In this document: one piece after another, positions 15,026 to 55,285 of the stretch
Position numbering within the stretch: the first letter of the stretch is position 1
Layout: each line of letters opens with the position of its first letter
Assembly: GCA_963724825.1 (NCBI GenBank)
Contig: CAVRWT010000020.1
Location: 45,327 to 109,326, forward strand
Source of the DNA: an uncultured Acidobacteriota bacterium
GTDB taxonomy: Bacteria > Actinomycetota > Acidimicrobiia > Spongiisociales > ZC4RG35
Reading direction: 5' to 3'
Length of the DNA: 64,000 bases
Notes under the pieces: model-generated
The model's database searches: none
Told to the model about the DNA's origin: nothing
The model's input: the letters and a program-made list of their open reading frames with translations, nothing else
Translations under genes and position numbers: made by a program

Positions 15026-15901
15026 TCACCAGCCCACGCAGGGCGGGTACTTCTCCTGAGCCTGCGCCTGAGTGATCGGAAAGTCGACCGTCACCAGCAC
15101 GGGGTCGCTGAACGTCGATCCGTCGTACTCGTAAAACCGCCCATCGCCGCTGCCGAAGTCCGGATGCTCGCCTATCCCAATGGTGTCGCCGATAAGTCCC
15201 AGCTGGAACATGGAGACACCGTCGGCTCCACATGAGAACCAATCGATGTGGGAGGCACCTCCACCCATCCAAATGTCGGGCACTGTCCCGTCCGAGAGCG
15301 AGACCGGAGTCAATGCGCAGTCCCTGAGCACGATGAGCCCGTAGACCGGTCCCACCCCGCCTGCGCCGATGTCGGCCACGATGAGGCGATCGCCCGACAT
15401 CTTCACGATCCCGACGGGGCCACTACCAAATCCGTCGCCATTGTCGATTGTGTCGGTTCGCAGGGTCGTTCCCCAGTCGGTGGAAAGGGTCACGTGGAGA
15501 AAGATCCCGCCCTCGCTGGAATAGCCGGTGACGGTGTCCTTGTATCCATCACCGTCGACATCTCCGGACAGGCGAGTCAGCTCAGCCGCGCCCGTCGGGA
15601 TCTCGGAAGATGGCTCGTCATCGCAGGCGTGAGACGGTGGGGGCTTGGTGGTGGTCGTAGTTGGTGGTGTCGTGGTCGTTGTCGACGCCTCTGTGGTCGT
15701 AGTCGGCGCGATGGTCGTCGTGGTTGCGAGCGTCGTTGTCGTAGTTGGGGCTCGAGTGGTGCTCGTCGATGTTGCCGGAATGGTGGTCGAGGTGGTTCCC
15801 GTCAGCTCGGGCCCGGCTCCACAAGCCATGACCATCGCGGCGAGCAGCGTCACGATCACGGCATTGGTTCGGCGGGTCGAGAGACGGCAATCCATGAACA
15901 T
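15026..15901 (-). CDS. lipoprotein with Thr/Pro-rich linker and FG-GAP/VCBS-like DxDGDG motif
   Basis: LLAAMVMAC lipobox, about 70 aa of T/P-rich low complexity, then DVDGDGYKD and Gly/Asp-rich beta-type sequence. Confidence 0.65.
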   Translation of the reverse strand: MFMDCRLSTRRTNAVIVTLLAAMVMACGAGPELTGTTSTTIPATSTSTTRAPTTTTTLATTTTIAPTTTTEASTTTTTPPTTTTTKPPPSHACDDEPSSEIPTGAAELTRLSGDVDGDGYKDTVTGYSSEGGIFLHVTLSTDWGTTLRTDTIDNGDGFGSGPVGIVKMSGDRLIVADIGAGGVGPVYGLIVLRDCALTPVSLSDGTVPDIWMGGGASHIDWFSCGADGVSMFQLGLIGDTIGIGEHPDFGSGDGRFYEYDGSTFSDPVLVTVDFPITQAQAQEKYPPCVGW

Positions 15902-20140: not shown

Positions 20141-21114
20141 GCGTGATGAATTTGGCGCAGTCGTTGAACAGCGCACTGGACACCGCTCTCGAGTCCGACG
20201 ATCGGGTCGTCCTGCTCGGAGAGGACATCGGACGCACCGGAGGCGTGTTCCGGATCACTGACGGGCTGCAAGAGAAGTACGGGGAGAATCGGGTCTTCGA
20301 CACCCCGGTTGCCGAATCCGGGATCGTGGGGGCGGCGTTCGGGATGGCCATCGCCGGCCTGCGCCCGGTCGCCGAGATCCAGTTCCTCGGATTCTCCTAT
20401 CCGGCCTACGACCAGGTGATCAACCATGTGGCCCGGATCCGAAATCGCTCCGCCCATCGGTTCACTGCGCCTCTCGTCATCCGGATTCCCTTCGGTGGGG
20501 GAATCGGCGCCGCCGAGCATCATTCGGAGTCCACCGAGGCCATCTACACCCACATCCCCGGGCTCAAGGTGGTGGTCCCCTCGACTCCGCATGACGCCAA
20601 GGGCCTGTTGCTGGCGGCAATCGAGGACCCGGACCCGGTGATCTTCCTGGAGCCGATTCGCCTCTATCGAGCGGTAAAGGACGAGATCCCCGACATCTAC
20701 TACACATCTGAGATCGGGCCGGCCCGCGTCGAGCGTGAGGGCAAGGACATCACCCTCATCTCCTGGGGGGCGATGATGAAGGAGACCCGGGCCGCGGCGA
20801 CCGCTCTCGGTGAGCATGGGGTGTCCGTAGAGGTCCTCGACCTCCGCACCTTGTCACCGCTCGACACTTCCACCATCGTGTCGTCGGCCGAGAAGACCGG
20901 CCGGGTCGTGGTGATCCACGAGGCGCCAAGAACCGGTGGGCTCGGTGGCGAGATCGCCGCGATCATCCAGGAGCAGGCTTTCTATTCGCTTCTGGCGCCG
21001 GTGCGCAGGGTCACCGGGTGGGACACCGTCTTTCCCTTGAAGCGCTCGGAGGGCCATTACCTTCCGAATATGGACAGGATCGTTCAGGCGGCCGAACAGA
21101 CCTTGGAGGATTAG
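20137..21114 (+). CDS. 2-oxoacid dehydrogenase E1 beta subunit
   Basis: VVLLGEDIGRTGGVFRIT and FDTPVAESGIVG motifs. ATG at 20137 overlaps the E1 alpha stop (ATGA). Confidence 0.9.
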   Translation: MSVMNLAQSLNSALDTALESDDRVVLLGEDIGRTGGVFRITDGLQEKYGENRVFDTPVAESGIVGAAFGMAIAGLRPVAEIQFLGFSYPAYDQVINHVARIRNRSAHRFTAPLVIRIPFGGGIGAAEHHSESTEAIYTHIPGLKVVVPSTPHDAKGLLLAAIEDPDPVIFLEPIRLYRAVKDEIPDIYYTSEIGPARVEREGKDITLISWGAMMKETRAAATALGEHGVSVEVLDLRTLSPLDTSTIVSSAEKTGRVVVIHEAPRTGGLGGEIAAIIQEQAFYSLLAPVRRVTGWDTVFPLKRSEGHYLPNMDRIVQAAEQTLED

Positions 21115-22564
21115 TGGCGAAGGAATTCAGGCTTCCCGACATCGGGGAAGGGCTAACCGAAGCGGAGATCGTCCGCTGGCTGGTGGCTGAGGGGGAGCGG
21201 GTGGAAGCCGACCAACCGGTTGTCGAGGTGGAGACCGACAAGGCGGTGGTCGAGATCCCCTCGCCGTATGCCGGGATCGTGCTCCAGCATGGTGGCGCGG
21301 AAGGGGAGACCATCGCGGTGGGCTCGGTTCTGGTCGTGATCAGCGAGCCAGGAGAGAGCTCGGCGCCGGCCGACATCCTGGCCCCCGTCGAACAGCCGCC
21401 CGTCGTATCGGCCGCCCCCATTGTGGGAACCCTCAGCGAAGACGCCGAGGATCTCAGTGCACCTCCAGCAGACACTCCGGAGACCGATCCGGTGAAGGCT
21501 CTTCCCATCGTGCGCAAGATGGCTCGGGACCTGGGTGTCGATTTGTCCGAGATCGCCGGCTCGGGGCCGGGGGGCAGGATCACCCGTGAGGACGTGACCG
21601 CCGCGGCGGGCCCCGGTGGCGAGTCGAACCCGAGCCGGAGCCTCGAAGCCCGAGCCAATCCACCGGAGCCCGAGCCGGAACCTGAGCCGGAGCCCGAACC
21701 CGAGCCTGTTTCCTCCCCCAGGAGCGAAGCGAGCCTGTCTCCTCCCCCAGGAGCGAAGCGACGTTGGGGGAGGTGGATCGGCCGCAGGCCGAGACGGAGG
21801 GGGCCGTTTCTCCCCCCAGTGAGCGAAGCGAGCGTTGGGGGGAGTACCCCGAAGGGGGGAGGGGGGCTACTCCGACGTCAACCGAGGACGTCCGTCGTCC
21901 CCTGTCCCGTCTCCGCAAGACGATCGCGGCCAACATGTCCCGGAGTTGGGCGGAGATCCCCCACGTCACCACCTTCGACGACATCGACGCCACCCGGCTC
22001 CTCGAGATCCGGTCGGCGTTGAGCGCCCGTCACGACGTGAAGGTCCCCCTCGAGGCGCTGGTGGTCAAGGCGGTGATTCCCGCCCTCGAAGCCTTCCCCG
22101 AGTTCAACTCCACACTGGATGGCGAAGACCTGATCCTCCATGGCTCGCACCACGTCGGGATCGCGGTCGACACCCCCGATGGCTTGCTGGTGGCAGTGAT
22201 TCGGGATGCCGGGTCGAGAGGTGTGCTCGAGCTCGCATCTGAGGTGCGACGACTCGGCGAGGGTGCCAAGGCGAGATCGCTCTCACCGGATGAGCTGACC
22301 GGGCAGACCTTCACCGTTTCCAACATCGGCGCCCTGGGCGGCGGGCACGGCACACCGATCGTGCCGCCCGGCACCACCGCCATACTCTCGGTGGGGAGGG
22401 CTCAGGAGAAGGCAATCGTCATCGATGGGGAGCTGGCGATTGCCCCGGTGATGCCTCTGTCGCTGTCATACGATCATCGTGTCATCGATGGTGGATTGGG
22501 AAGGAGATTCATGGCAATGCTGCGTGAGAACCTCGAAGAGCCGGCGCTCTTCCTGGCAGGTTGA
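21114..22564 (+). pseudogene. dihydrolipoamide acyltransferase E2, reading frame interrupted inside a repeat cluster in the linker
   Basis: The lipoyl domain (VETDKAVVEIPSP) and the PSBD (ALPIVRKMARDLGVDLSEIAGSGPGGRITREDV) are in frame 0. The catalytic domain (RLRKTIAANM...SYDHRVIDG) is in frame 2. The switch lies between 21705 and 21870. Confidence 0.8.
21705..21867 (+). repeat. cluster of GC-rich hairpin repeat units: two 29-nt tandem half units, one hairpin-1 unit, one full 61-nt unit
   Basis: 21705-21733 and 21734-21762 are 27/29 identical (CCTGTyTCCTCCCCCAGGAGCGAAGCGAs). 21807-21867 matches the 34399-34457 unit. Confidence 0.8.
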
Positions 22565-33051: not shown

Positions 33052-34359
33052 ATGCCCGGTCCCAATGTTTGGTTGAGCACGCTCGGGTGTGCCAAGAACC
33101 AGGTCGACTCGGAGAAGCTGATCGCCATGCTTTCCGAGGCCGGTTACGGCTGGGCGGACAGCCCCGAAGAGGCCGATGTCGTGATGGTCAACACCTGCGC
33201 CTTCATCGAAGAGGCCCGGGCCGAGTCGGTCGATGTGATCCTCGACATGGAGGCCAGGAAGCGACCCGGTGCCCGATCGGTGGTGATCGGTTGCATGGCG
33301 CAGCGGTTCGGGTCTGAGGTCGAGTCGGCCTTGCCCGAAGTGGATGCGGTCCTCGGCATCGATCGCTACGGCGAATTGGTTGGCGTCCTCGACGGGCTCA
33401 CCGGCTGGCATCCGGTCGAGATGCGTCGGCGCCCGATCATGGACATCCTCCACGCCACCGGTCGGCCGGTATCCGGCCTTCCCTATGCCTACCTGAAGGT
33501 CGCCGAGGGCTGCGACAAGCCGTGCACCTTCTGCGCCATCCCTTCGATCCGGGGCAAGCAGCGATCGCGGCGACCGGTCGAGATCCGGGAGGAGTTGGCG
33601 CTCCTGGTGGCCGGCGGCGTTTCCGAAGTGGTCCTGGTGGCCCAGGACCTCGCCGCCTACGGGCGGGACATCGAGGCACCAGGCGGCCTGCCCGACCTTC
33701 TCGCCTTTGTCTCCGATGTGGAGGGGTTGCGTCGGATTCGGCTCCTCTACCTCCACCCTCGGGAGATCAGGGAACGGCTCCTAATGGAAGTCACCGAGAA
33801 CGAGAAGGTGGCTCCTTACTTCGACCTCTCACTCCAGCATGTCGCGGGCCCGCTCCTGCGCCGAATGAAGCGGCCCGGGAACTACGAGAAGCATCTCGCG
33901 CTCATCGAGCGAATCCGCGAGCTCGACCCAGAGTCAGCGTTGCGCTCCTCGTTCATCGTCGGGTTCCCCGGTGAGAGTGATGAGGACGTCGAGTTGCTCG
34001 CCGACTTCCTGGATGAGGCGATGTTGGACTGGGCCGGGTTCTTCCCGTATTCGGCAGAGCCGGGAACCCCGGCGGCGGAGATGGAGGACCAGGTGCCGCG
34101 GGAGCAGACCATGGATCGCCTGCGCTATCTCTCCCGGATCCAGGATGAGATGACCGAGTCCCGGAATTCGGAATGGTTGGGCCGCACCGATCTGGTGTTG
34201 GTCGACCAGGTGGAAGACGGGGTGCCGGTGGGGAGGTCACACCGTCAGGCGCCGGAGATCGACGGGGTGATTCGCCTCGATCGGGGAGAGGTCGGGGAGT
34301 GGGTGAAGGCCGAGTACGTGGGTGTCTTCGGTCCCGACATGGAGGCGGTGGTGTTGTGA
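33052..34359 (+). CDS. rimO: ribosomal protein S12 methylthiotransferase
   Basis: MTTase N-domain LGCAKNQVDSE, radical-SAM CDKPCTFCAIP, and a TRAM C-terminus. Confidence 0.9.
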   Translation: MPGPNVWLSTLGCAKNQVDSEKLIAMLSEAGYGWADSPEEADVVMVNTCAFIEEARAESVDVILDMEARKRPGARSVVIGCMAQRFGSEVESALPEVDAVLGIDRYGELVGVLDGLTGWHPVEMRRRPIMDILHATGRPVSGLPYAYLKVAEGCDKPCTFCAIPSIRGKQRSRRPVEIREELALLVAGGVSEVVLVAQDLAAYGRDIEAPGGLPDLLAFVSDVEGLRRIRLLYLHPREIRERLLMEVTENEKVAPYFDLSLQHVAGPLLRRMKRPGNYEKHLALIERIRELDPESALRSSFIVGFPGESDEDVELLADFLDEAMLDWAGFFPYSAEPGTPAAEMEDQVPREQTMDRLRYLSRIQDEMTESRNSEWLGRTDLVLVDQVEDGVPVGRSHRQAPEIDGVIRLDRGEVGEWVKAEYVGVFGPDMEAVVL

Positions 34360-34398
34360 TCGTCCGCGGCGCGGCGGAGCCCCGGCCGACCGGCGTCA

Positions 34399-34457
34399 TT
34401 TCTCCCCCCAGGAGCGAAGCGACGTTGGGGGGAGTACCCCGAAGGGGGGAGGGGGGC
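34399..34457 (+). repeat. full copy of the GC-rich double-hairpin repeat (intergenic, rimO-cinA)
   Basis: TTTCTCCCCCCAGGAGCGAAGCGACGTTGGGGGGAGTACCCCGAAGGGGGGAGGGGGGC. Hairpin 1 pairs 34402-34410 with 34426-34434. Hairpin 2 is CCCC-GAA-GGGG at 34437-34447. Confidence 0.8.
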
Positions 34458-34492
34458 ACCCCGGACGCGATCAGTCGGCGAGCAGAATCACC

Positions 34493-35728
34493 GTGATCGT
34501 TGAGGTCATCGCCGTGGGGACCGAGCTCCTGCTCGGTCAGATCGTCAACTCCAACACTTCCTTCATGGGCGCCGCTCTCGCCGAGCGTGGTTTCGACGCC
34601 CACTACCAACAGACCGTCGGCGACAACATCGATCGCGTCGCAGCCACGATCAGGCTGGCCCTGAGTCGAGCTGACGCGGTGATCATCACCGGTGGGATCG
34701 GGCCCACCCAGGACGACCTCACCCGGGAAGCCGTGTGCGCCGCCACCGGTCTGGAGATGGTCTACAGCGAGGGCTACGCCAAAGAGCTCGAGGAGTGGTG
34801 GTCGCGGCGGGGGAGGGAGATGCCGCCGAGCAACCTTCGCCAGGCTTATCACCCCGCCGGCGCCGAGCTGCTGCCCAATCCCCGGGGGACTGCCCCGGGT
34901 CTGGCGTTGGAGCATCAGGGAAAGTGGATCTTCTGCGTTCCCGGGGTGCCCGCAGAGATGGAGCACCTGGTGATGGCGGAAGTGTTGCCCCGGCTGATGG
35001 ACCAGTCGGACGATCAACAGGTGATCGTGAGCCGGGTGATCAGAACCTGGGGCCGCCCCGAGTCAGAAGTCGCAGAGATGCTCGACGATCTCTACACCGG
35101 CTCGATCAACCCTTCGCTTGCCTTTCTCGCCTCGGCTTCCGAGATCAAGGTGCGGATAACCGCCAAGGCCGACGATGCCGCCGAGGCCGAGTCCCTGATC
35201 GAGCCGATGGAGAAGGAGGTCCGGTCGCGTCTCGGCGACAGCGTTTTCGGGACCGACGATGACACCATCGAGAGGATCTTGCTTCGGCTGCTCACCGACC
35301 TCCGCTACTCCATCGGGACCGCCGAGTCGATGACCGGCGGCATGGTCGCTGCCCGTCTCACCGACCTTCCCGGGTCATCGGCCGTGATGAAAGGCGGCCT
35401 GGTCGCCTACGACCCCGAGCTGAAGCAGCGTCTCCTCGGTGTGAGTGACGTGCACGAAGTGGTGAATGTGGAGACGGCGGTGGCAATGGCGGTCGGCGCT
35501 CGCAGCTTGCTCGGCGTCGATGTGGCCGTGGCGGTGACCGGCTCCGCCGGCCCCGATCCCCTCGAGAAGCCGGCAGGCACGGTGGTCGTCGCGGTGGCCA
35601 CACCCGATGATGTCCGGGGTCGGGAGATCCGCTTCACCGGCGATCGGGAGCGAGTTCGGACGTACGGGACCACCGCCGCTCTTCAACTGACGCGACTCGC
35701 GCTGATCGGTCAGTGGTGGGCTCCGTAG
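34493..35728 (+). CDS. cinA: competence/damage-inducible protein CinA (MoCF-binding plus PncC amidase domains)
   Basis: GTG at 34493. VIAVGTELLLGQIVNSN and GGIGPTQDDLT. The C-terminus has TAESMTGG. Confidence 0.85.
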   Translation: MIVEVIAVGTELLLGQIVNSNTSFMGAALAERGFDAHYQQTVGDNIDRVAATIRLALSRADAVIITGGIGPTQDDLTREAVCAATGLEMVYSEGYAKELEEWWSRRGREMPPSNLRQAYHPAGAELLPNPRGTAPGLALEHQGKWIFCVPGVPAEMEHLVMAEVLPRLMDQSDDQQVIVSRVIRTWGRPESEVAEMLDDLYTGSINPSLAFLASASEIKVRITAKADDAAEAESLIEPMEKEVRSRLGDSVFGTDDDTIERILLRLLTDLRYSIGTAESMTGGMVAARLTDLPGSSAVMKGGLVAYDPELKQRLLGVSDVHEVVNVETAVAMAVGARSLLGVDVAVAVTGSAGPDPLEKPAGTVVVAVATPDDVRGREIRFTGDRERVRTYGTTAALQLTRLALIGQWWAP

Positions 35729-45495: not shown

Positions 45496-45570
45496 GGGCC
45501 CTTAGCTCAGCCTGGCTAGAGCGCTTGCTCGACACGCAAGAGGTCACTGGTTCAAGTCCAGTAGGGCCCA
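45496..45570 (+). tRNA. tRNA-Val (anticodon GAC)
   Basis: Acceptor GGGCCCT/AGGGCCC, anticodon stem-loop CTTGC-TCGACAC-GCAAG, T-loop TTCAAGT. 75 nt. Confidence 0.95.
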
Positions 45571-45659
45571 CAATTGAGAAACCCCCGCTACTTCGGGGGT
45601 CTCGTCGATTCTCGTGGGGTACGACCGTTTCGGCTCTGTACGGATCGTGGCTATTATAC

Positions 45660-45675
45660 TTCACTAATTGGTGAA
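45660..45675. promoter_or_regulatory. candidate ArsR-type operator
   Basis: TTCAC-taattg-GTGAA inverted repeat in an AT-rich stretch ending 5 nt before the ArsR-family ATG. Confidence 0.35.
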
Positions 45676-45680
45676 CTATT

Positions 45681-46043
45681 ATGCGTGAGATCCGACCTAG
45701 CCCTGATCTGGACAACGTCTTTGAGGCTCTTGCAAACCGGCATCGGCGTGAAATCATCCACATGCTGAGCTTGCGGCCCTCCTCGATCAGCCATCTGGCT
45801 TCTATGCGAGGGCTCTCTCTTCCCGCAATGCACAAGCACTTGGCGGTCCTGGAGAACGCCGAGATGGTGCTTCGCAAAAAGGTAGGTCGCACCAACTTCC
45901 TTGCGCTCAACCGCGAGCCTCTCGGCCGACTTCAGGAATGGGTGAACCAGTTTCATCCCTACTGGGGGAGCGATCAGGAGACATTGGAAAACTACGCCCA
46001 GCATCTGGGCAACGAGCAATCACAAGACGAGGAGCAGGCATGA
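45681..46043 (+). CDS. ArsR/SmtB family transcriptional regulator
   Basis: FEALANRHRREIIHML...SISHLA...LSLPAMHKHLAVLENAEMV winged-HTH pattern. Confidence 0.85.
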   Translation: MREIRPSPDLDNVFEALANRHRREIIHMLSLRPSSISHLASMRGLSLPAMHKHLAVLENAEMVLRKKVGRTNFLALNREPLGRLQEWVNQFHPYWGSDQETLENYAQHLGNEQSQDEEQA

Positions 46044-46330
46044 AGAAATTCCTATTCGTCTACCACGGAGCGTGGGTGTACACCCAGGAAGTGAAGGAGG
46101 GCTGGACCAACTGGTTTGCATTGATCGGTGACAGCATCATCGACGGCGGTAGTCCTCTCGGGCCCGGACGAGAAGTGACGCCAACGGGAACCAAGGAAAC
46201 GTCACCAGACATCTCGCCTGCCACGGGCTACACCCTGGTCAAAGCGGACAGCATGGAAGAAGCAGTTGGCCTTCTCGAGGAATGTCCCATCATCGACAGT
46301 GTCATGGTCTACGAAGCCATGTCGATGTAG
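46040..46330 (+). CDS. YciI/YCII-related small protein
   Basis: MKKFLFVYHG...W..W...IGDSIIDGGSPLG...EEAVGLLEECP pattern. The ATG overlaps the ArsR stop (ATGA). Confidence 0.55.
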   Translation: MKKFLFVYHGAWVYTQEVKEGWTNWFALIGDSIIDGGSPLGPGREVTPTGTKETSPDISPATGYTLVKADSMEEAVGLLEECPIIDSVMVYEAMSM

Positions 46331-46614
46331 CGATCCCCTCAGATGTCGATCTGATTCAACCCCGTCGGACTTGGCCGAACAGAACCTTGCAGCGTCAAAC
46401 CGACTCCAAGAGATCCCTCGTTGATTCGCACGCCGCACCTACTAGGACTGCAGGGTTGCCATTCAGGGTGCCAAATGCCCTGGAAAAACGTCCTCTGTGA
46501 GAGACCCAGGTCGATCTGGAGTCCTCGGCTCATAACCGACATAGCTCTAGCTAGCGGCACCTTCCATCTTCACGCGTAGGGACTCTCAAATCGCCCAGGT
46601 CAACTCCGTATTCA

Positions 46615-46672
46615 TCGACACGCAAGAGGTCACTGGTTCAAGTCCAGTAGCGCCCAAAAGAGAGAAACCCCC
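46615..46672 (+). repeat. copy of the 3' part of tRNA-Val(GAC) plus flank (att-like)
   Basis: TCGACACGCAAGAGGTCACTGGTTCAAGTCCAGTAGcGCCCAaAAgaGAGAAACCCCC versus 45529-45586, with 4 mismatches. Confidence 0.85.
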
Positions 46673-46966
46673 AGGTCAGCCCCGAAATGGCAACGCCCGA
46701 AGCTGAACTCGGGTCGGGGCGAGACGTTCCGGGTGGGCGCTCGCTGAAGGAGTTTTCGCACGTCGTTGTGGACGATGATCGTGGCTATCGTGATGCCCTC
46801 CCCGGCGACCGTGGTCGTCTTGGGCGCTCACGTACCGCCTCACGGAGGCTTCCTCAGACGTCGCTCCCACCGAGACGGCCTGATCGGGTGGTGCAAGGAG
46901 ACAGCTCAAGGCCAAGCGCCACCACGGACAATTGAAGGCGACTTGGAGACCGGAGCATCCCGAGCA

Positions 46967-48520
46967 CTAAGACCCCGGGATCTTCACCAGTAGTAGTTGG
47001 CCGTTCTCCCTTTTGATCAGCACTCCGTTGACCGTGTTCTGCATCTGGTTCGATCCATGAGCCTGAACATCGACCACCCACCATCCCGAGCCGAAGAACC
47101 CCGAGGCGTCCACGATCCCGCTCGACTCGCCAACCGGGTCGGCCACCGCGGCGACCACTCTCCAGTCCTCGCTTCCGAAGCGGTACTGCCAGATCTTGGC
47201 GTTGCCGATGTCCTCTTGGACCATCAGGCTCTTCTTGCTGGTGTCGAGATTGTCGGGAGCGCGGAAAGGAACGAAGGCATCGCCCGCCGGATTGTCTCCT
47301 TGCGCCAGGACCGAGAACGCCTTGACCCGAAGCGGGTTGCGCGAGTCGAACACGAATCTGAAGATCCGCCCGTTGTCGGCTTGCCCCACGGTCCCCGACG
47401 GTCCGCGAACCATCCGACCGGTGGCTGGGTTGGGCACGACTCTGGTCGAGCCGGTGTCGGCAATGTAGACGATCGTCGGGTGTTTCTTGTCGGTTGCGAT
47501 GTCCTCGAGACGGATGAACTGGAACACGTTGTTGGCGTTGGACCATTCCTCGAGGGCGGCTTGGGGAGCGACGCCTGTGGTCCCTTTCGCTATCTCTTCG
47601 GGGACCTCGATGAACTCACCCTTCCAGGTCATTCCGGGCTGGATGTCGAGGTAGTCGTTGGCTCCGTTGAAGGCATCGGTCGGATTCACCGGTCCGGTCT
47701 GTGTCGAGGTCACTCGGAAGGCGTAGAGCTTGCCTTCGTCGGCCAGGACTGCATCGCCGCTCCTCGCCCGGTACAGATAGAGCTGGGAGGTCGGTGGCAA
47801 GAAGGTGTCGTCGGTCGTCAACATCGCCACCCCCCGCCAGTGGCCGTTGACGGCCACGGTGTTCTCGTGGTTGAGCCGGCCCATGCCGGGGATGTGTGTC
47901 GATTCGCCGGTACGTGTGTCGTAGGCGACGACATAGCCGGCCTGACGATTGGGGTCGAGCGACGGGTCGGGCCCAAAGTCGGCACCTGCCGGGACCGGAA
48001 GGATGTCGTTGGACTCCTCGCCAGTGAAGAAGGTGGGGTGTCTGAACCCGTCATTCGTGGTCGCCATGAACGCCGAGCAGAACCGGATGAAACCCTGTTC
48101 CGGCCCGAGGACCGTTTCGGCCTTCTGCACCGCGCCGAGGTTCGAGGACGAGGTGGAGAGCGTCAGCTTCGAGATCGACGAGTCCTGATGGTCCGCCGCG
48201 CCGCTGAAAGGAACAGTGCTTTGCTCATGCCCGACGTAGACGTCGACCGTCTTCCGGTCACGACCCTGGGTGAGCCCGATGCCATCGGGAAGGCCTTCGA
48301 AAACGAATGACCCCAGCGCCTCACCACTATTGATGATCGGGATGACGCGCCCGTTCGAGATAGATGGGTCGAGCACGATCAAAGGGGGGGCCGAGGTGAG
48401 GTATCCACCACCCCCCGATGCAACGGCGGCCGTTGGGAACATGACGGCGACCAGGGCGAGGGTGGAAAGAAGTGCGACCGTTCGAGATATGCGGGTTCGC
48501 GGCTCAACGAGACTGGACAT
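46967..48520 (-). CDS. secreted PhoX/DUF839-like beta-propeller protein
   Basis: Signal peptide MSSLVEPRTRISRTVALLSTLALVAVMFPTAAVAS, then GMGRLNHEN and IADTG motifs reminiscent of PhoX-type phosphatases. ATG at 48520. Confidence 0.65.
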   Translation of the reverse strand: MSSLVEPRTRISRTVALLSTLALVAVMFPTAAVASGGGGYLTSAPPLIVLDPSISNGRVIPIINSGEALGSFVFEGLPDGIGLTQGRDRKTVDVYVGHEQSTVPFSGAADHQDSSISKLTLSTSSSNLGAVQKAETVLGPEQGFIRFCSAFMATTNDGFRHPTFFTGEESNDILPVPAGADFGPDPSLDPNRQAGYVVAYDTRTGESTHIPGMGRLNHENTVAVNGHWRGVAMLTTDDTFLPPTSQLYLYRARSGDAVLADEGKLYAFRVTSTQTGPVNPTDAFNGANDYLDIQPGMTWKGEFIEVPEEIAKGTTGVAPQAALEEWSNANNVFQFIRLEDIATDKKHPTIVYIADTGSTRVVPNPATGRMVRGPSGTVGQADNGRIFRFVFDSRNPLRVKAFSVLAQGDNPAGDAFVPFRAPDNLDTSKKSLMVQEDIGNAKIWQYRFGSEDWRVVAAVADPVGESSGIVDASGFFGSGWWVVDVQAHGSNQMQNTVNGVLIKRENGQLLLVKIPGS

Positions 48521-48688
48521 GTGGCTCCTCGGGATGCGGTCCACGGAGCATACGCCATGACCACGGTCCGCGTCCGAGGCGCGCGACAACAGATAGCGGT
48601 GGTGGCAAGATCGAGGGATCGGGGTGGGTCACCGAGATTCTTCGTCGACTGCGCCAAGTTGCTCGAGGAGAACTACGACCCGAATTGT

Positions 48689-48726
48689 GGTTCAAGTCCA
48701 GTAGGGCCCACAAGTGAGAAACCCCC
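48689..48726 (+). repeat. direct repeat of the tRNA-Val(GAC) 3' end plus flank (attR-like)
   Basis: GGTTCAAGTCCAGTAGGGCCCACAAgTGAGAAACCCCC versus 45549-45586, with 1 mismatch. Confidence 0.85.
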
Positions 48727-48749
48727 CGGAAAAAGGGGGGTTTCTTTTG
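48718..48749 (+). terminator. rho-independent terminator-like hairpin
   Basis: GAAACCCCCC-ggaaaaa-GGGGGGTTTC followed by TTTTGT. Probably the original tRNA-Val terminator, displaced by the islet. Confidence 0.7.
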
Positions 48750-48826
48750 TGATGAACGTGGCTTCGTGTGATCTCAGTTGTGCCATTATTGGTGTCGTTG
48801 GACGGAAGTATTTAGGAGAGATTCGC

Positions 48827-49222
48827 ATGGCCATGTCCCAAGAACACAAGGATGCCCTTGCCCGCGGACGCAAGGAGTCGAGGGCTATCAAGGCATATCT
48901 GAAAACCATTGAGTCCCGCAAACCGGGCAGACCCGTAACCAAGGACAGCCTCAATTCAAGGCTCGCCACGGTCAACAACAAGCTCGAGACAACAGATGAT
49001 CCCTTGAAGCGGTTGGATCTCCTCCAGTCGAGGCTGGATATAGAGGAAGCGTTGGAGTCGGTGGAGGAAGTAGCGAATCTCGACGAGATTGAGGGTGATT
49101 TCGTGGCAAACGCCTCGGCATACTCGCAGCGAAAGGGGATCAGCTACACGGCGTGGCGCCGATTCGGAGTACCGGCTGTGGTCCTGAAGAAGGCCGGGAT
49201 TCCCGAAACCAGGCGCCGCTAG
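48827..49222 (+). CDS. conserved hypothetical protein (charged, helical)
   Basis: ATG at 48827 preceded by AGGAG. 131 aa. The C-terminal GISYTAWRRFGVPAVVLKKAGI segment resembles an actinobacterial family I cannot name. Confidence 0.55.
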   Translation: MAMSQEHKDALARGRKESRAIKAYLKTIESRKPGRPVTKDSLNSRLATVNNKLETTDDPLKRLDLLQSRLDIEEALESVEEVANLDEIEGDFVANASAYSQRKGISYTAWRRFGVPAVVLKKAGIPETRRR

Positions 49223-49572
49223 TCCCAGCCCAAATCGGCGAGTCGTTGGTCGTCGATTCCGATGTGATGGGCGATTTCGTGGAGGACGGTTCTGCGGATT
49301 TCGGCCTCGAGCTCTTCGTCATCGAGCCCCATTTCGAGGTGGGGAGCACGAAAGATGATGATCCGGTCGGGCAGAGCGCCGGAGTAATCGGCGGCCCGTT
49401 CGGGCAGGGAAACTCCTTCGTAAAGCCCGAGAACGTCGCCTTGGTCGTCATCGGGCCTGTCCTCGACGACGACATGGAGATTGTCGATCTGCTCCACCAC
49501 CCACGGGGGCAGGCTTTCCAGAGTCTGGTCGACGACATCCTCGAATTGGCGACGGTTCACCTCGGGATTCAA
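49219..49572 (-). CDS. zincin-like metallopeptidase family protein (DUF1025-like)
   Basis: HEIAHHIG (HExxH) near the C-terminus and an acidic N-terminus. 117 aa. Confidence 0.7.
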   Translation of the reverse strand: MNPEVNRRQFEDVVDQTLESLPPWVVEQIDNLHVVVEDRPDDDQGDVLGLYEGVSLPERAADYSGALPDRIIIFRAPHLEMGLDDEELEAEIRRTVLHEIAHHIGIDDQRLADLGWD

Positions 49573-49623
49573 TCACGGAGTCGCAGGATCGGAAGCGACC
49601 GGTATCCTGACCGCTCCCCATAC

Positions 49624-49698
49624 GGGCGATTAGCTCAGTCCGGCTAGAGCGCTCGCCTCACACGCGAGAGGTCACTGGTTCAAGTCCAGTATCGCCCA
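49624..49698 (+). tRNA. tRNA-Val (anticodon CAC)
   Basis: Acceptor GGGCGAT/ATCGCCC, anticodon stem-loop CTCGC-CTCACAC-GCGAG, T-arm identical to tRNA-Val(GAC). 75 nt. Confidence 0.95.
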
Positions 49699-49717
49699 CC
49701 ATCGGAGGTGATCGCCT

Positions 49718-54382: not shown

Positions 54383-55285
54383 ATGACGCTGCGCCGGGTC
54401 GACACCGGGCCCGAGCTCATCGAAGCCGTATCGCTCGCCTCCCAATGGTCCGAATCCCTGCATCAACCATCGTTGAGCGGAGCAACCCGGCTCCAACTCG
54501 GTGAAGGCCGTGGAAGCGGATTCGTCTCGGACCAGCCTTCCGGATTCGCCACCCTCACCGCTTCGAAGCAGCCCGAGATAGCGATGGTCGAGATCGCCGT
54601 GCCGCACTCGGTTTCGGCTTCGGATTTCTGGGATCTGGTCGAACCGGTCGTGTTCTCGGCGGCAGGGGAGAGAGGGTTTCTGGCTCTGGAACTGCTGACC
54701 TGGGATGGGGAGCTTCAGAGTCGATTGCGGGAGCGGGGATGGACCGCGGTGAGATCGATCAAGCGAGGTTCTCGCGTCGAGAGTGCCCCCCTCCCCGCCT
54801 CCGGCGGTACTCCCCCCAACGTCGCTCCGCTCCTGGGGGGAGAAACATCGACGGTCGCTCCGCTCCTGGGGGGAGAAACCGACATCGACCAGTTGATCGA
54901 GGTCAACAACCTTGCCTTTGCCGACCATCCGGATGCCGGTGCCTGGGATCGCGCCGAGTTGGAGCAACTGTTCTCCGAGCCCTGGTTCGACCCGAAGGGG
55001 CTCCTCGTCGGCCGGATGGGTGAGACGATCATCGGGTTCTGCTGGACCAAGGTCCATCCCGACGGCGTGGGGGAGATCTACCTGCTTGCGGTGCGACCCG
55101 GGCACACCGGGCGCGGCTTGGGGCGGGAATTGGCCAGCGCCGGCGTCGACTACTTGAAGGGCGAACGCGCCTGCCAGGAGGTCATCATCTACTGGGATGC
55201 CTCCAATGACACGGCCAGCAACCTGTACCAATCGATCGGATTCAGCGTCGACCGTTTGGCTGAGGTCTTCCAGCACCGTTTGTGA
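54383..55285 (+). CDS. mshD: mycothiol synthase-like tandem GNAT acetyltransferase carrying an in-frame repeat insertion
   Basis: The C-terminal GNAT domain (VNNLAFADHP...PWFDPKGLL...GFCWTKVH...GEIYLLAVRPGHTGRGLG) is typical of MshD. The interdomain segment APLPASGGTPPNVAPLLGGETSTVAPLLGGET is encoded by the repeat. Confidence 0.7.
   Translation: MTLRRVDTGPELIEAVSLASQWSESLHQPSLSGATRLQLGEGRGSGFVSDQPSGFATLTASKQPEIAMVEIAVPHSVSASDFWDLVEPVVFSAAGERGFLALELLTWDGELQSRLRERGWTAVRSIKRGSRVESAPLPASGGTPPNVAPLLGGETSTVAPLLGGETDIDQLIEVNNLAFADHPDAGAWDRAELEQLFSEPWFDPKGLLVGRMGETIIGFCWTKVHPDGVGEIYLLAVRPGHTGRGLGRELASAGVDYLKGERACQEVIIYWDASNDTASNLYQSIGFSVDRLAEVFQHRL
54785..54879 (-). repeat. GC-rich double-hairpin repeat: one full copy plus a 33-nt-offset partial tandem copy, inside mshD
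   Basis: The reverse complement of 54785-54845 aligns with the 34399-34457 unit. 54854-54879 repeats 54821-54846 exactly. Confidence 0.8.

Follow-up and report, generated by a model that had tools for sequence, protein, structure and literature searches.

A G+C-rich unit of about 60 nt lies in the rimO-cinA spacer of a 64,000-nt stretch of contig CAVRWT010000020.1 (hereafter the window; 63.9% G+C), deposited under the name of an uncultured Acidobacteriota bacterium, and it recurs inside two genes of the same stretch. What kind of element can sit in a spacer as well as in reading frames, and which enzyme could spread it? The unit very probably belongs to a REP/BIME-like family of selfish or neutral repeats. 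For the fuller account, in which these structured repeats of ~60 nt form a REP/BIME/REPIN-like system with a DUF559 nuclease in a role like that of RAYT (the Y1 HUH transposase of REPs), the evidence tips somewhat in favour.

The first-pass annotation of this DNA had quoted the unit at 34399-34457 and reported two further occurrences, a same-strand one at 21807-21867 and a reverse one at 54785-54845; all three positions were exact. It had also listed three partial copies. Two of them, at 21705-21733 and 54854-54879, are real and are parts of tandem duplications of 29 and 33 nt, while the third, at 21734-21773, turned out to be the start of a further full copy, here called D. The full copies, with their covariance model (CM) matches, are:

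34399 to 34457, plus strand: copy A, full element in the 134-nt rimO-cinA spacer (CM match 34397-34456, 79.3 bits)
54785 to 54845, minus strand: copy C, full element inside the MshD-like gene (CM match 54787-54847, 73.6 bits)
21807 to 21867, plus strand: copy B, full element directly 3' of D in the E2 gene (CM match 21805-21866, 70.1 bits)
21736 to 21804, plus strand: copy D, full but diverged element in the inter-domain linker of the E2 acyltransferase (CM match 21736-21803, 64.5 bits)

The model was built from 27 copies, all taken from other genomes, and was run with filters off. Over the whole window it returned exactly these four full copies, the next best score being 14 bits; an nhmmer profile gave the same four and two partial copies. 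When the unit was divided into sub-patterns, the left part had five matches in the window and the right part two, against none in 100 dinucleotide shuffles.

Copy A reads as TTTC, a first hairpin CTCCCCCCA/TGGGGGGAG with a GC-GAA-GC apex, a second hairpin CCCC-GAA-GGGG and the G-run GGGGGGAGGGGGGC. In copy D the first hairpin is CCTCCCCCA/TGGGGGAGG, compensated relative to that of A, the second is GGCC-GCA-GGCC and the end is GGAGGGGGC. Hairpin 2 of copy C is compensated to CCGCC-GGA-GGCGG, and copy B has an extra base pair in hairpin 1 (T.G beside the tandem G.A). Folded as DNA, every window copy formed a 9-bp hairpin 1 and a hairpin 2 of 4-5 bp, which bore out the two hairpins described in the first-pass annotation. 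The z-scores (-1.7 to -3.0) were modest because shuffled C-run/G-run sequence folds too. Copies A and C had been described as free of stop codons in all six frames; this holds for both and also for D, and B differs by a TGA at 21820, in a frame that E2 does not use. By direct reading of the sequence, copy A is moreover enclosed by outer complementary pentamers:

34393 to 34397 and 34464 to 34468, plus strand: GCGTC and GACGC, respectively

Copy C has an analogous outer CGTCGA/TCGACG, and such enclosure is not general in the family.

Across genomes, the consensus drawn by eye and from the alignment is gTTTCCTCCCCCAG-GAGCGNAGCGAC-GTTGGGGGAGG-t-(hairpin 2)-GGAGGGGG, a unit of ~60 nt with 70-75% G+C whose two ends are not inverted copies of one another. 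Hairpin 1, preceded by a 5' TTTC, has a C-run/G-run stem of 8-9 bp, an optional covarying pair, tandem G.A and a GC-GNA-GC apex. The stem sequence of hairpin 2 is free, usually with a GNA triloop and a T.G closing pair, and the 3' GGAGGGGG run follows it. MAFFT with RNAalifold on the raw copies recovered hairpin 1 alone and misaligned hairpin 2; covariation was assessed instead on 146 CM-aligned copies (136 distinct) with a hand-specified structure. Here 96.3% of the cells were paired, and 12 of the 18 pairs had changed on both sides (334 cells). In 500 column shuffles none of these measures was ever reached, and sliding the 3' partners by 1-3 columns lowered the pairing to 45-62%. A count that does not depend on the alignment is given by the optional pair inserted around GAGC-GNA-GCGA, which was C-G in 20 copies, G-C in 13, T.G in 4 and T-A in 2, with 5 non-pairs. 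The apical loop of hairpin 1 was GNA throughout (GAA 66, GGA 37, GCA 17, GTA 2), and in short-loop forms (L115, L122, L123) the hairpin was closed directly by the GNA triloop. Of 123 copies, 116 had hairpin 2, with 54 distinct arm sequences and a GNA loop in 79. In the CM alignment the pair closing hairpin 2 was T.G in 89 copies. Because of this T.G closure the element folds better on the strand as written than on the complement. The fold is conserved by compensatory change and is strand-specific. Unusual stability, most of all in DNA, is a property both of GNA triloops with a C-G closing pair and of tandem G.A pairs.

Tandem duplications of flank plus left half were found in 13 cases across genomes, always ending ...GCGA in the loop and sometimes comprising three or more units; both window duplications (29 nt in E2, 33 nt in mshD) belong to this class and the other 11 loci hold equivalents. 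The apex of the hairpin-1 loop is a recurrent breakpoint, a hot spot for left-half duplication and for the nested copies described below. Polymerase stalling or slippage at a very stable mini-hairpin could produce such breakpoints, and so could site-specific nicking.

The family reaches far beyond the window. A degenerate hairpin-1 pattern, run against one genome per species, found at least 110 stretches; the 80 loci listed come from ~40 assemblies, with several stretches per metagenome-assembled genome (MAG), in line with the many genomic copies that three loci in 64 kb had been taken to imply. Among the loci listed, nearly all hosts are Acidimicrobiia MAGs from unrelated projects, and judged by this pattern the family is found across many genomes of that class, in at least 40 species-level MAGs. 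Twelve loci (L008, L010, L015, L030, L032, L040, L052, L055, L060, L062, L064, L077) come from one project and are titled 'uncultured Acidobacteriota bacterium', and their element is as in Acidimicrobiia MAGs. L052 encodes pafA and pafBC-type pupylation genes, on which ground we doubted its title; the Acidobacteriota label of these MAGs is probably wrong, and otherwise the family would cross phyla. Rfam 15 at gathering score reported only four tRNAs in the window and no match to the element, and at E <= 10 it gave nothing credible on two repeat-rich loci. Neither the sequence nor a description of the family was found in a full-text literature search. The unit had been called unrecognised from its letters alone, and the family is apparently undescribed.

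Placement was studied by a profile search of the window and 113 loci (799 kb), which gave 186 matches. Two or more copies were present at 43 loci, with a maximum of six. Adjacent pairs were oriented -+ in 16 cases, +- in 6, ++ in 10 and -- in 11, and the head-to-head doublets often paired two subtypes. A spanning-ORF (open reading frame) test with a GC3 signature put ~10 of 108 clusters in coding-like ORFs and ~98 outside, with more than 90% of copies intergenic. Most of the ~10 coding-like cases lie upstream of a Pfam domain and are probably leaders. Coding sequence is convincingly occupied in E2 and the MshD-like gene of the window, and also in L086, where the copy lies in the C-terminal tail of NrdJ, a class II ribonucleotide reductase. 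As to the likeness to Rickettsia palindromic elements (RPEs) proposed in the first-pass annotation, in-frame genic copies are real but rare, and the family is mainly intergenic, which makes REP/BIME the closer analogue. The neighbours of copies are ordinary housekeeping genes, toward which solo copies show no orientation preference (17 vs 12 at the 3' end, 16 vs 12 at the 5' end). Copies occupy the same spacers across species; instances are the spacer between glnA and purA and those adjoining gap and pafA. A survey of 176 coding-like ORFs lying no more than 300 nt from copies (110 loci; whole genomes were not searched) turned up no recurrent transposase-like family.

At L044 (4808-5372) five same-strand copies follow one another with a 108-nt period, and at L066 (337-740) alternating-strand copies recur every ~155-185 nt; both arrays are higher-order tandem amplifications of element-plus-spacer units. 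In L132 (2316-2425) a copy is split in the right arm of hairpin 1 by an unrelated perfect palindrome of ~55 nt (TCATGGTTCTTTACACCG...CGGTGTAAAGAATCATGA), a second small palindromic element inserted into the first.

Copy A itself would be a neutral spacer copy. Its neighbours are:

33052 to 34359, plus strand: rimO, upstream (NCBIfam TIGR01125, 400 bits, above cut-off)
34493 to 35728, plus strand: cinA, downstream (NCBIfam NF001813, 415 bits, above cut-off)

MAG LejiaC_64_14 (L001) carries a copy with the other compensated stem variant and the same flank as A, and because the flank is identical we regard it as the orthologous site. The names RimO and CinA, assigned earlier from the letters, hold above their cut-offs; the E2 catalytic domain and MshD match below theirs, and we call the latter MshD-like only.

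The two genic sites allow filled and empty alleles to be compared. The features of the first are:

21114 to 22564, plus strand: E2 acyltransferase gene of a pyruvate dehydrogenase (PDH)-type E1alpha/E1beta/E2 operon, interrupted as sequenced
21701 to 21729, plus strand: extra 29-nt tandem unit, made of 9 nt of native linker (CGAGCCTGT) and the left half of D to the loop apex

The PDH-type E1 alpha matches above its NCBIfam cut-off, and E1 beta, like the E2 catalytic domain, below. The first-pass annotation missed that the gene is broken: the lipoyl and E3-binding parts are in frame 0, whose ORF stops at 22022, and the catalytic domain is in frame 2 (ORF 21764-22564). Copies D and B together make 138 nt, or 46 codons, and are in frame; the cause of the frameshift is the 29-nt unit, which differs at one position from its twin at 21730-21758 and whose deletion in silico restored a single E2 ORF of 473 aa. 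An intron or excised segment was considered as the cause and rejected, as the frame is restored only by removing the 29-nt unit or the whole 167-nt block and there is no hint of splicing. Orthologues had been named as the place to look for empty sites, and they were found there. Among the 120 E2 orthologues compared, the closest (89-91% identity in the catalytic domain) have no element and a plain (EP)n linker ending EGATQPASTEDV, and most of those at 60-67% identity have an element-free linker of 34-35 residues. Others carry a single D-type copy, or a pair of copies whose positions and frames differ; one has a copy in reverse orientation, and in two a copy is nested in the loop of another (...SEAT|SLPPANEVSVGGSAGEAGRG|VLGEV...). 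The D-type peptide VSSPRSEATLGEVDRPQAETEGA is also encoded in the orthologues P0197, P0200 and P0212, and the other peptides read from element-bearing coding sequence are VSPPSERSERWGEYPEGGRGA and the APLPASGGTPPNVAPLLGGET of the MshD-like protein. The E2 linker has received the element by repeated, independent insertions. At the DNA level no target-site duplication was found between filled and empty E2 alleles, and at the junction the empty allele already reads CCGGAGGGGGCTACC, the element's 3' motif, including GGAGGGGGC. In the window gene D and B would have lengthened the linker by 46 residues, and a later slippage duplication of 29 nt would have broken the frame.

The second site gave a different picture:

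54383 to 55285, plus strand: MshD-like two-domain GNAT gene, intact, with copy C between its two domains
54854 to 54886, minus strand: second 33-nt tandem unit (left half plus flank), twin at 54821-54853, in frame and adding 11 residues (STVAPLLGGET)

Copy C is read in frame as APLPASGGTPPNVAPLLGGET. The element-encoded peptide is present in orthologues at 71-79% identity and in one at 59%, and the remaining orthologues at 55-60% carry a native segment, xPLPxxxxGxxVEVFQRERD, which can be aligned with the corresponding part of Streptomyces MshD. Between filled and empty alleles the length differs by only two residues and no target-site duplication was found, and the native DNA looks like the element's two ends (CCTCCCCG...CCAGGGGGAAC). 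The alignment to the NCBIfam MshD profile starts at position 140 in an element-free protein and at 159 in the window protein. At this site the element overwrote a native segment of about equal length and did not add to it. Copy C would thereby have replaced the start of the second GNAT domain and later gained the in-frame 33-nt duplication. As to the gene itself, the Acidimicrobiia 'mycothiol synthase' homologues (window protein, P0002-P0017) score 122-129 bits against an NCBIfam MshD equivalog cut-off of 163, and the equivalog aligns with no more than the C-terminal half of the window protein and of the element-free P0009. An MshD function of these homologues is not assured, judging from their sequences, because the N-terminal GNAT domain is very diverged.

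The family is not an RPE, not a MITE and not an Rfam family. Like RPEs, its palindromic repeats can be read through in frame, adding peptide to housekeeping proteins, with empty sites in orthologues. However, RPEs are 100-150 bp long and A+T-rich, have Rickettsiales hosts and are genic in large share, whereas the present unit has 60 nt, 70-75% G+C and a mainly intergenic distribution in Acidimicrobiia, and one genic copy (MshD) replaces native sequence instead of adding to it. From MITEs it differs by having neither terminal inverted repeats nor, in the E2 and mshD alleles, target-site duplication. With IS200/IS605 elements and PATEs it shares subterminal hairpins, the lack of target-site duplication, insertion at a short motif and a single-strand DNA logic, but there is no nearby TnpA or TnpB and the element is a single 60-nt unit, not two distinct ends. 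The likeness to REP/BIME/REPIN systems goes further: a short, imperfect stem-loop palindrome in many copies per genome, mostly extragenic, in alternating-orientation clusters and head-to-head doublets of two subtypes, with long vertical persistence, no target-site duplication, occasional genic copies (PMC3733652) and one resident nuclease gene with inverted copies on either side. The differences are that two hairpins and a G-run here make ~60 nt where REPs have one palindrome of 20-40 nt, that GTAG is absent from both ends (112 aligned copies), that the hairpin-1 sequence is conserved across a class and not across a genus, and that the bracketed gene is not the Y1 HUH transposase but a PD-(D/E)XK, Vsr-like DUF559 protein. 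The CGTC-tagged REPs are also palindromic, partly in coding regions and often dimeric, a class that 'apparently lacks a dedicated transposase' (PMC3733652). The CGTC...GACG enclosure is seen at copies A and C and is not family-wide; the likeness is one of description.

What, then, is the bracketed gene? In two MAGs of the first sample (L052, L068), outside the window, a gene for a DUF559 protein of ~123 residues lies tightly between copies. For a follow-up sample the close subfamily was collected, 20 members were aligned and 80 metagenome loci were examined. The element profile matched 21 of the 48 loci whose DUF559 is at least ~47% identical and none of the 32 distant loci; near the close subfamily a copy stood almost always 2-60 nt past the stop and/or 32-170 nt before the start. 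We then used a scanner independent of form (hairpin 1 without the loop module), counting as near anything within 300 nt of the DUF559 gene. At close loci a near match was present in 36 of 47, with 111 matches in 23.7 kb near and 8 in 71.6 kb far; at distant loci there were 37 matches in 17.8 kb near and 3 in 82.7 kb far. On both sides of distant DUF559 genes in other phyla stand inverted copies of a CCCTCCCCCC-loop-GGGGGAGGG hairpin with TTxGGGTGGGGGG after it, the G-run pointing toward the gene. In several Acidimicrobiia the gene has a fixed position between pafA and pafB, as expected of a resident gene. Contigs with the close subfamily are mostly 0.6-3 kb long, as expected if flanking repeats break short-read assemblies, and the subfamily is probably under-represented in MAGs. 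A distant DUF559 query against a plasmid collection found mostly one copy per replicon, a result that tells little about mobility.

The subfamily matches Pfam PF04480 at 8.6e-28, and its profile matches 3HRL, a solved DUF559 structure, at E = 3.3e-23. The predicted structure (pLDDT 83.6) has 3HRL, I-Bth0305I (3R3P) and Vsr (1CW0) as best fold matches, and an E-V-D-D-x-S-H ... D-E core is conserved across the 20 sequences. By sequence and predicted fold the associated protein is a Vsr/DUF559-clade PD-(D/E)XK nuclease and a candidate enzyme of the family. Vsr, DUF559 and the I-Bth0305I-type homing endonuclease have been classed in one clade (PMC3424549), and a Caulobacter DUF559 protein acts as a damaging Vsr-like nuclease (PMC12907096). 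With Vsr and I-Bth0305I, which nick or cleave and so start short-patch repair or homing by gene conversion, the protein shares the fold and the conserved E-x-D-(D/G)-x-x-H core; it differs in that no cytosine methyltransferase is adjacent and no intron is present. The CCWGG/Dcm context of a Vsr-type enzyme was sought and rejected, CCAGG occurring only in the commonest loop variant and not as a family feature. A full-text search found no literature linking DUF559 or ycjD to repeats. The inverted copies on both sides of the gene suggest that a second type of REP-and-nuclease system exists; for a functional tie of the repeats to DUF559 we consider the chances even.

A similar arrangement is seen in Escherichia coli K-12, at:

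1351040 to 1351760 of NC_000913.3 (L199/L200): ycjD repeat locus

The DUF559 gene ycjD ends inside a hairpin repeat, with its stop codon in the loop (CACCCTCTCCC-TGAAAGA-GCGAGGGGG), and further copies lie in the ycjD-fabI spacer. The 55-nt stretch at the end of ycjD occurs at a median of 15 places per genome, up to 28, in 5399 of 5426 genomes. Like the present family it is a dispersed, G+C-rich imperfect palindrome of low copy number (CCCTCTCCC...GGGAGAGGG) followed by a G-rich tail (TTAGGGTGAGGG), but the similarity is limited to the C-run/G-run logic, the GAGCGNAGCGA apex and the second hairpin being absent. This repeat is probably BoxC. BoxC has been described as 56 bp long, in about 32 copies and of unknown function (PMC2267715).

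How might such a partner work? We propose that the element acts as folded single-stranded DNA, since the fold is strand-specific (T.G pairs) while the orientation relative to genes is random. The DUF559 nuclease would be a dedicated partner in RAYT's role, nicking the structure or look-alike sites, and repair or copy-choice from another copy would convert nicked sites into new copies. Such a conversion step would explain why no target duplication is left, why native sequence was replaced in MshD and why the sequence is so uniform across the class; as a mechanism of spread it is speculative and, in our judgement, unlikely to be correct as drawn. A wider and rather tentative proposal is that a widespread super-family of 'C-run/G-run hairpin + G-tail' repeats has small DUF559 nucleases as dedicated partners, which would make it a second REP system, independent of RAYT. 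It would take in the Acidimicrobiia family, the DUF559-flanking repeats of Proteobacteria and the E. coli ycjD repeats (the supposed BoxC), and nicking with short-patch or homing-like repair would keep copies uniform and turn look-alike sites, coding sequence included, into copies.

Several points weigh against a repeat family served by DUF559. Vsr-type enzymes are known to act on duplex T:G mismatches, not on hairpins. By tblastn no DUF559 gene was found in the 64-kb window, and the link is drawn from other genomes. Eleven of the 47 close loci are without a nearby hairpin, often where the flank is short, and duplicate metagenome loci (L116/117, L162/163, L175/176, L180/181, L186/187) inflate the DUF559 counts somewhat. 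Adjacency is no proof of action: DUF559 could be a passenger homing into repeat clusters, or the hairpins could be its regulatory signals. The CM-fitted alignment is biased toward the model's own structure. Filled/empty comparisons number only two (E2 and MshD), and the footprint of a deletion, or chance at high G+C, could account for the likeness between empty sites and element ends. Finally, the evidence on the Acidimicrobiia family comes from MAGs and loci.

Of the rival readings, the passenger alternative is the least improbable. In it DUF559 is a small selfish or homing cassette that uses the repeats as target or ends, and the copies are spread or kept by other means, for example recombination, slippage or host functions. 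At L116, L134 and L052 the gene stands between direct repeats of a whole (-)(+) doublet, as if inserted into a doublet; a homing endonuclease is among the best fold matches, and the DUF559-bearing contigs are mostly very short. Nevertheless, the single conserved pafA-pafB position in several species suggests vertical inheritance over recent mobility, and the bracket architecture is constant over 36-83% protein identity and across phyla. We consider this alternative improbable.

Less probable again is a canonical REP/REPIN family mobilised by a RAYT encoded elsewhere, the DUF559 adjacency being incidental. Imperfect palindromes, high copy number, extragenic position, alternating clusters, orthologous persistence and within-genome homogeneity are indeed REP/REPIN traits (PMC2817692, PMC3116915). 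What speaks against it is the missing GTAG tag, the lack of a recurring transposase-like family in the ORF survey given above, with its limit to loci, and the bracketing by inverted copies, which is RAYT's defining trait and belongs here to DUF559.

Could the repeats be cis-acting structured RNAs in multiple copies, such as terminators, mRNA stabilisers or protein-binding 3'UTR elements? The covariation is strong, G.U pairs favour one strand, the DUF559 stop codon is always followed by a copy, and E. coli REPs are mostly transcribed and affect mRNA decay (PMC12306157). An RNA element is nonetheless hard to reconcile with an orientation unbiased toward adjacent gene ends, with the use of either strand inside coding sequence and with the absence of any Rfam family even at E <= 10; furthermore, the copy past DUF559 is oriented so that its RNA has no T.G-paired fold. 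We regard the RNA reading as very unlikely. An intrinsic terminator was rejected separately, no T-run (U-tract) following either hairpin on either strand. An ordinary low-complexity linker or an assembly artefact has next to no chance and is already refuted for the family as a whole: the 29-nt E2 duplication does lie in repeat-rich sequence that is error-prone for assemblers and polymerases, but copies of the unit lie on both strands, in three reading frames and also in a spacer between genes, they come from ~40 independent assemblies, the two 29-nt units differ at one base and equivalent duplications exist at 11 other loci.

Two other features of the window were recorded. A tRNA-Val(GAC) gene (45496-45571) and a tRNA-Val(CAC) gene (49624-49701) flank two truncated copies of the 3' end of tRNA-Val(GAC) with ~12 downstream bases at 46634-46672 and 48688-48726 (90-97% identical), together with an ORF for an ArsR-type regulator (45681-46043) and a PhoX-like ORF on the minus strand (46967-48589). 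No integrase was found in this region (45496-49701), and the tRNA fragments look like leftover attachment sites of integrated elements. At 15648-15796 lies a tandem repeat with a 21-nt period (6 copies, 66-74% identical); it is low-complexity coding sequence of an ordinary kind, specifying the Thr-rich linker in what is probably a lipoprotein (ORF 15026-15901, minus strand).

Few non-coding features of bacterial genomes are as common as REP-like repeats, and only their GTAG class has a known mobilising enzyme, RAYT; for other classes, such as CGTC REPs and BoxC, no partner is known (PMC3733652). If it is true, a pairing of hairpin repeats with a Vsr-like nuclease, from Acidimicrobiia to E. coli, would supply a candidate enzyme for the orphan repeats and a function for the large DUF559 family, and the idea is directly testable in E. 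coli K-12 through ycjD. For the Acidimicrobiia themselves, the tendency to left-half duplication is a local source of frameshifts, as in E2, and the hairpin family accounts for odd Pro/Gly/Ser-rich inserts and frameshifts in their genes and for contig breaks in their MAGs.

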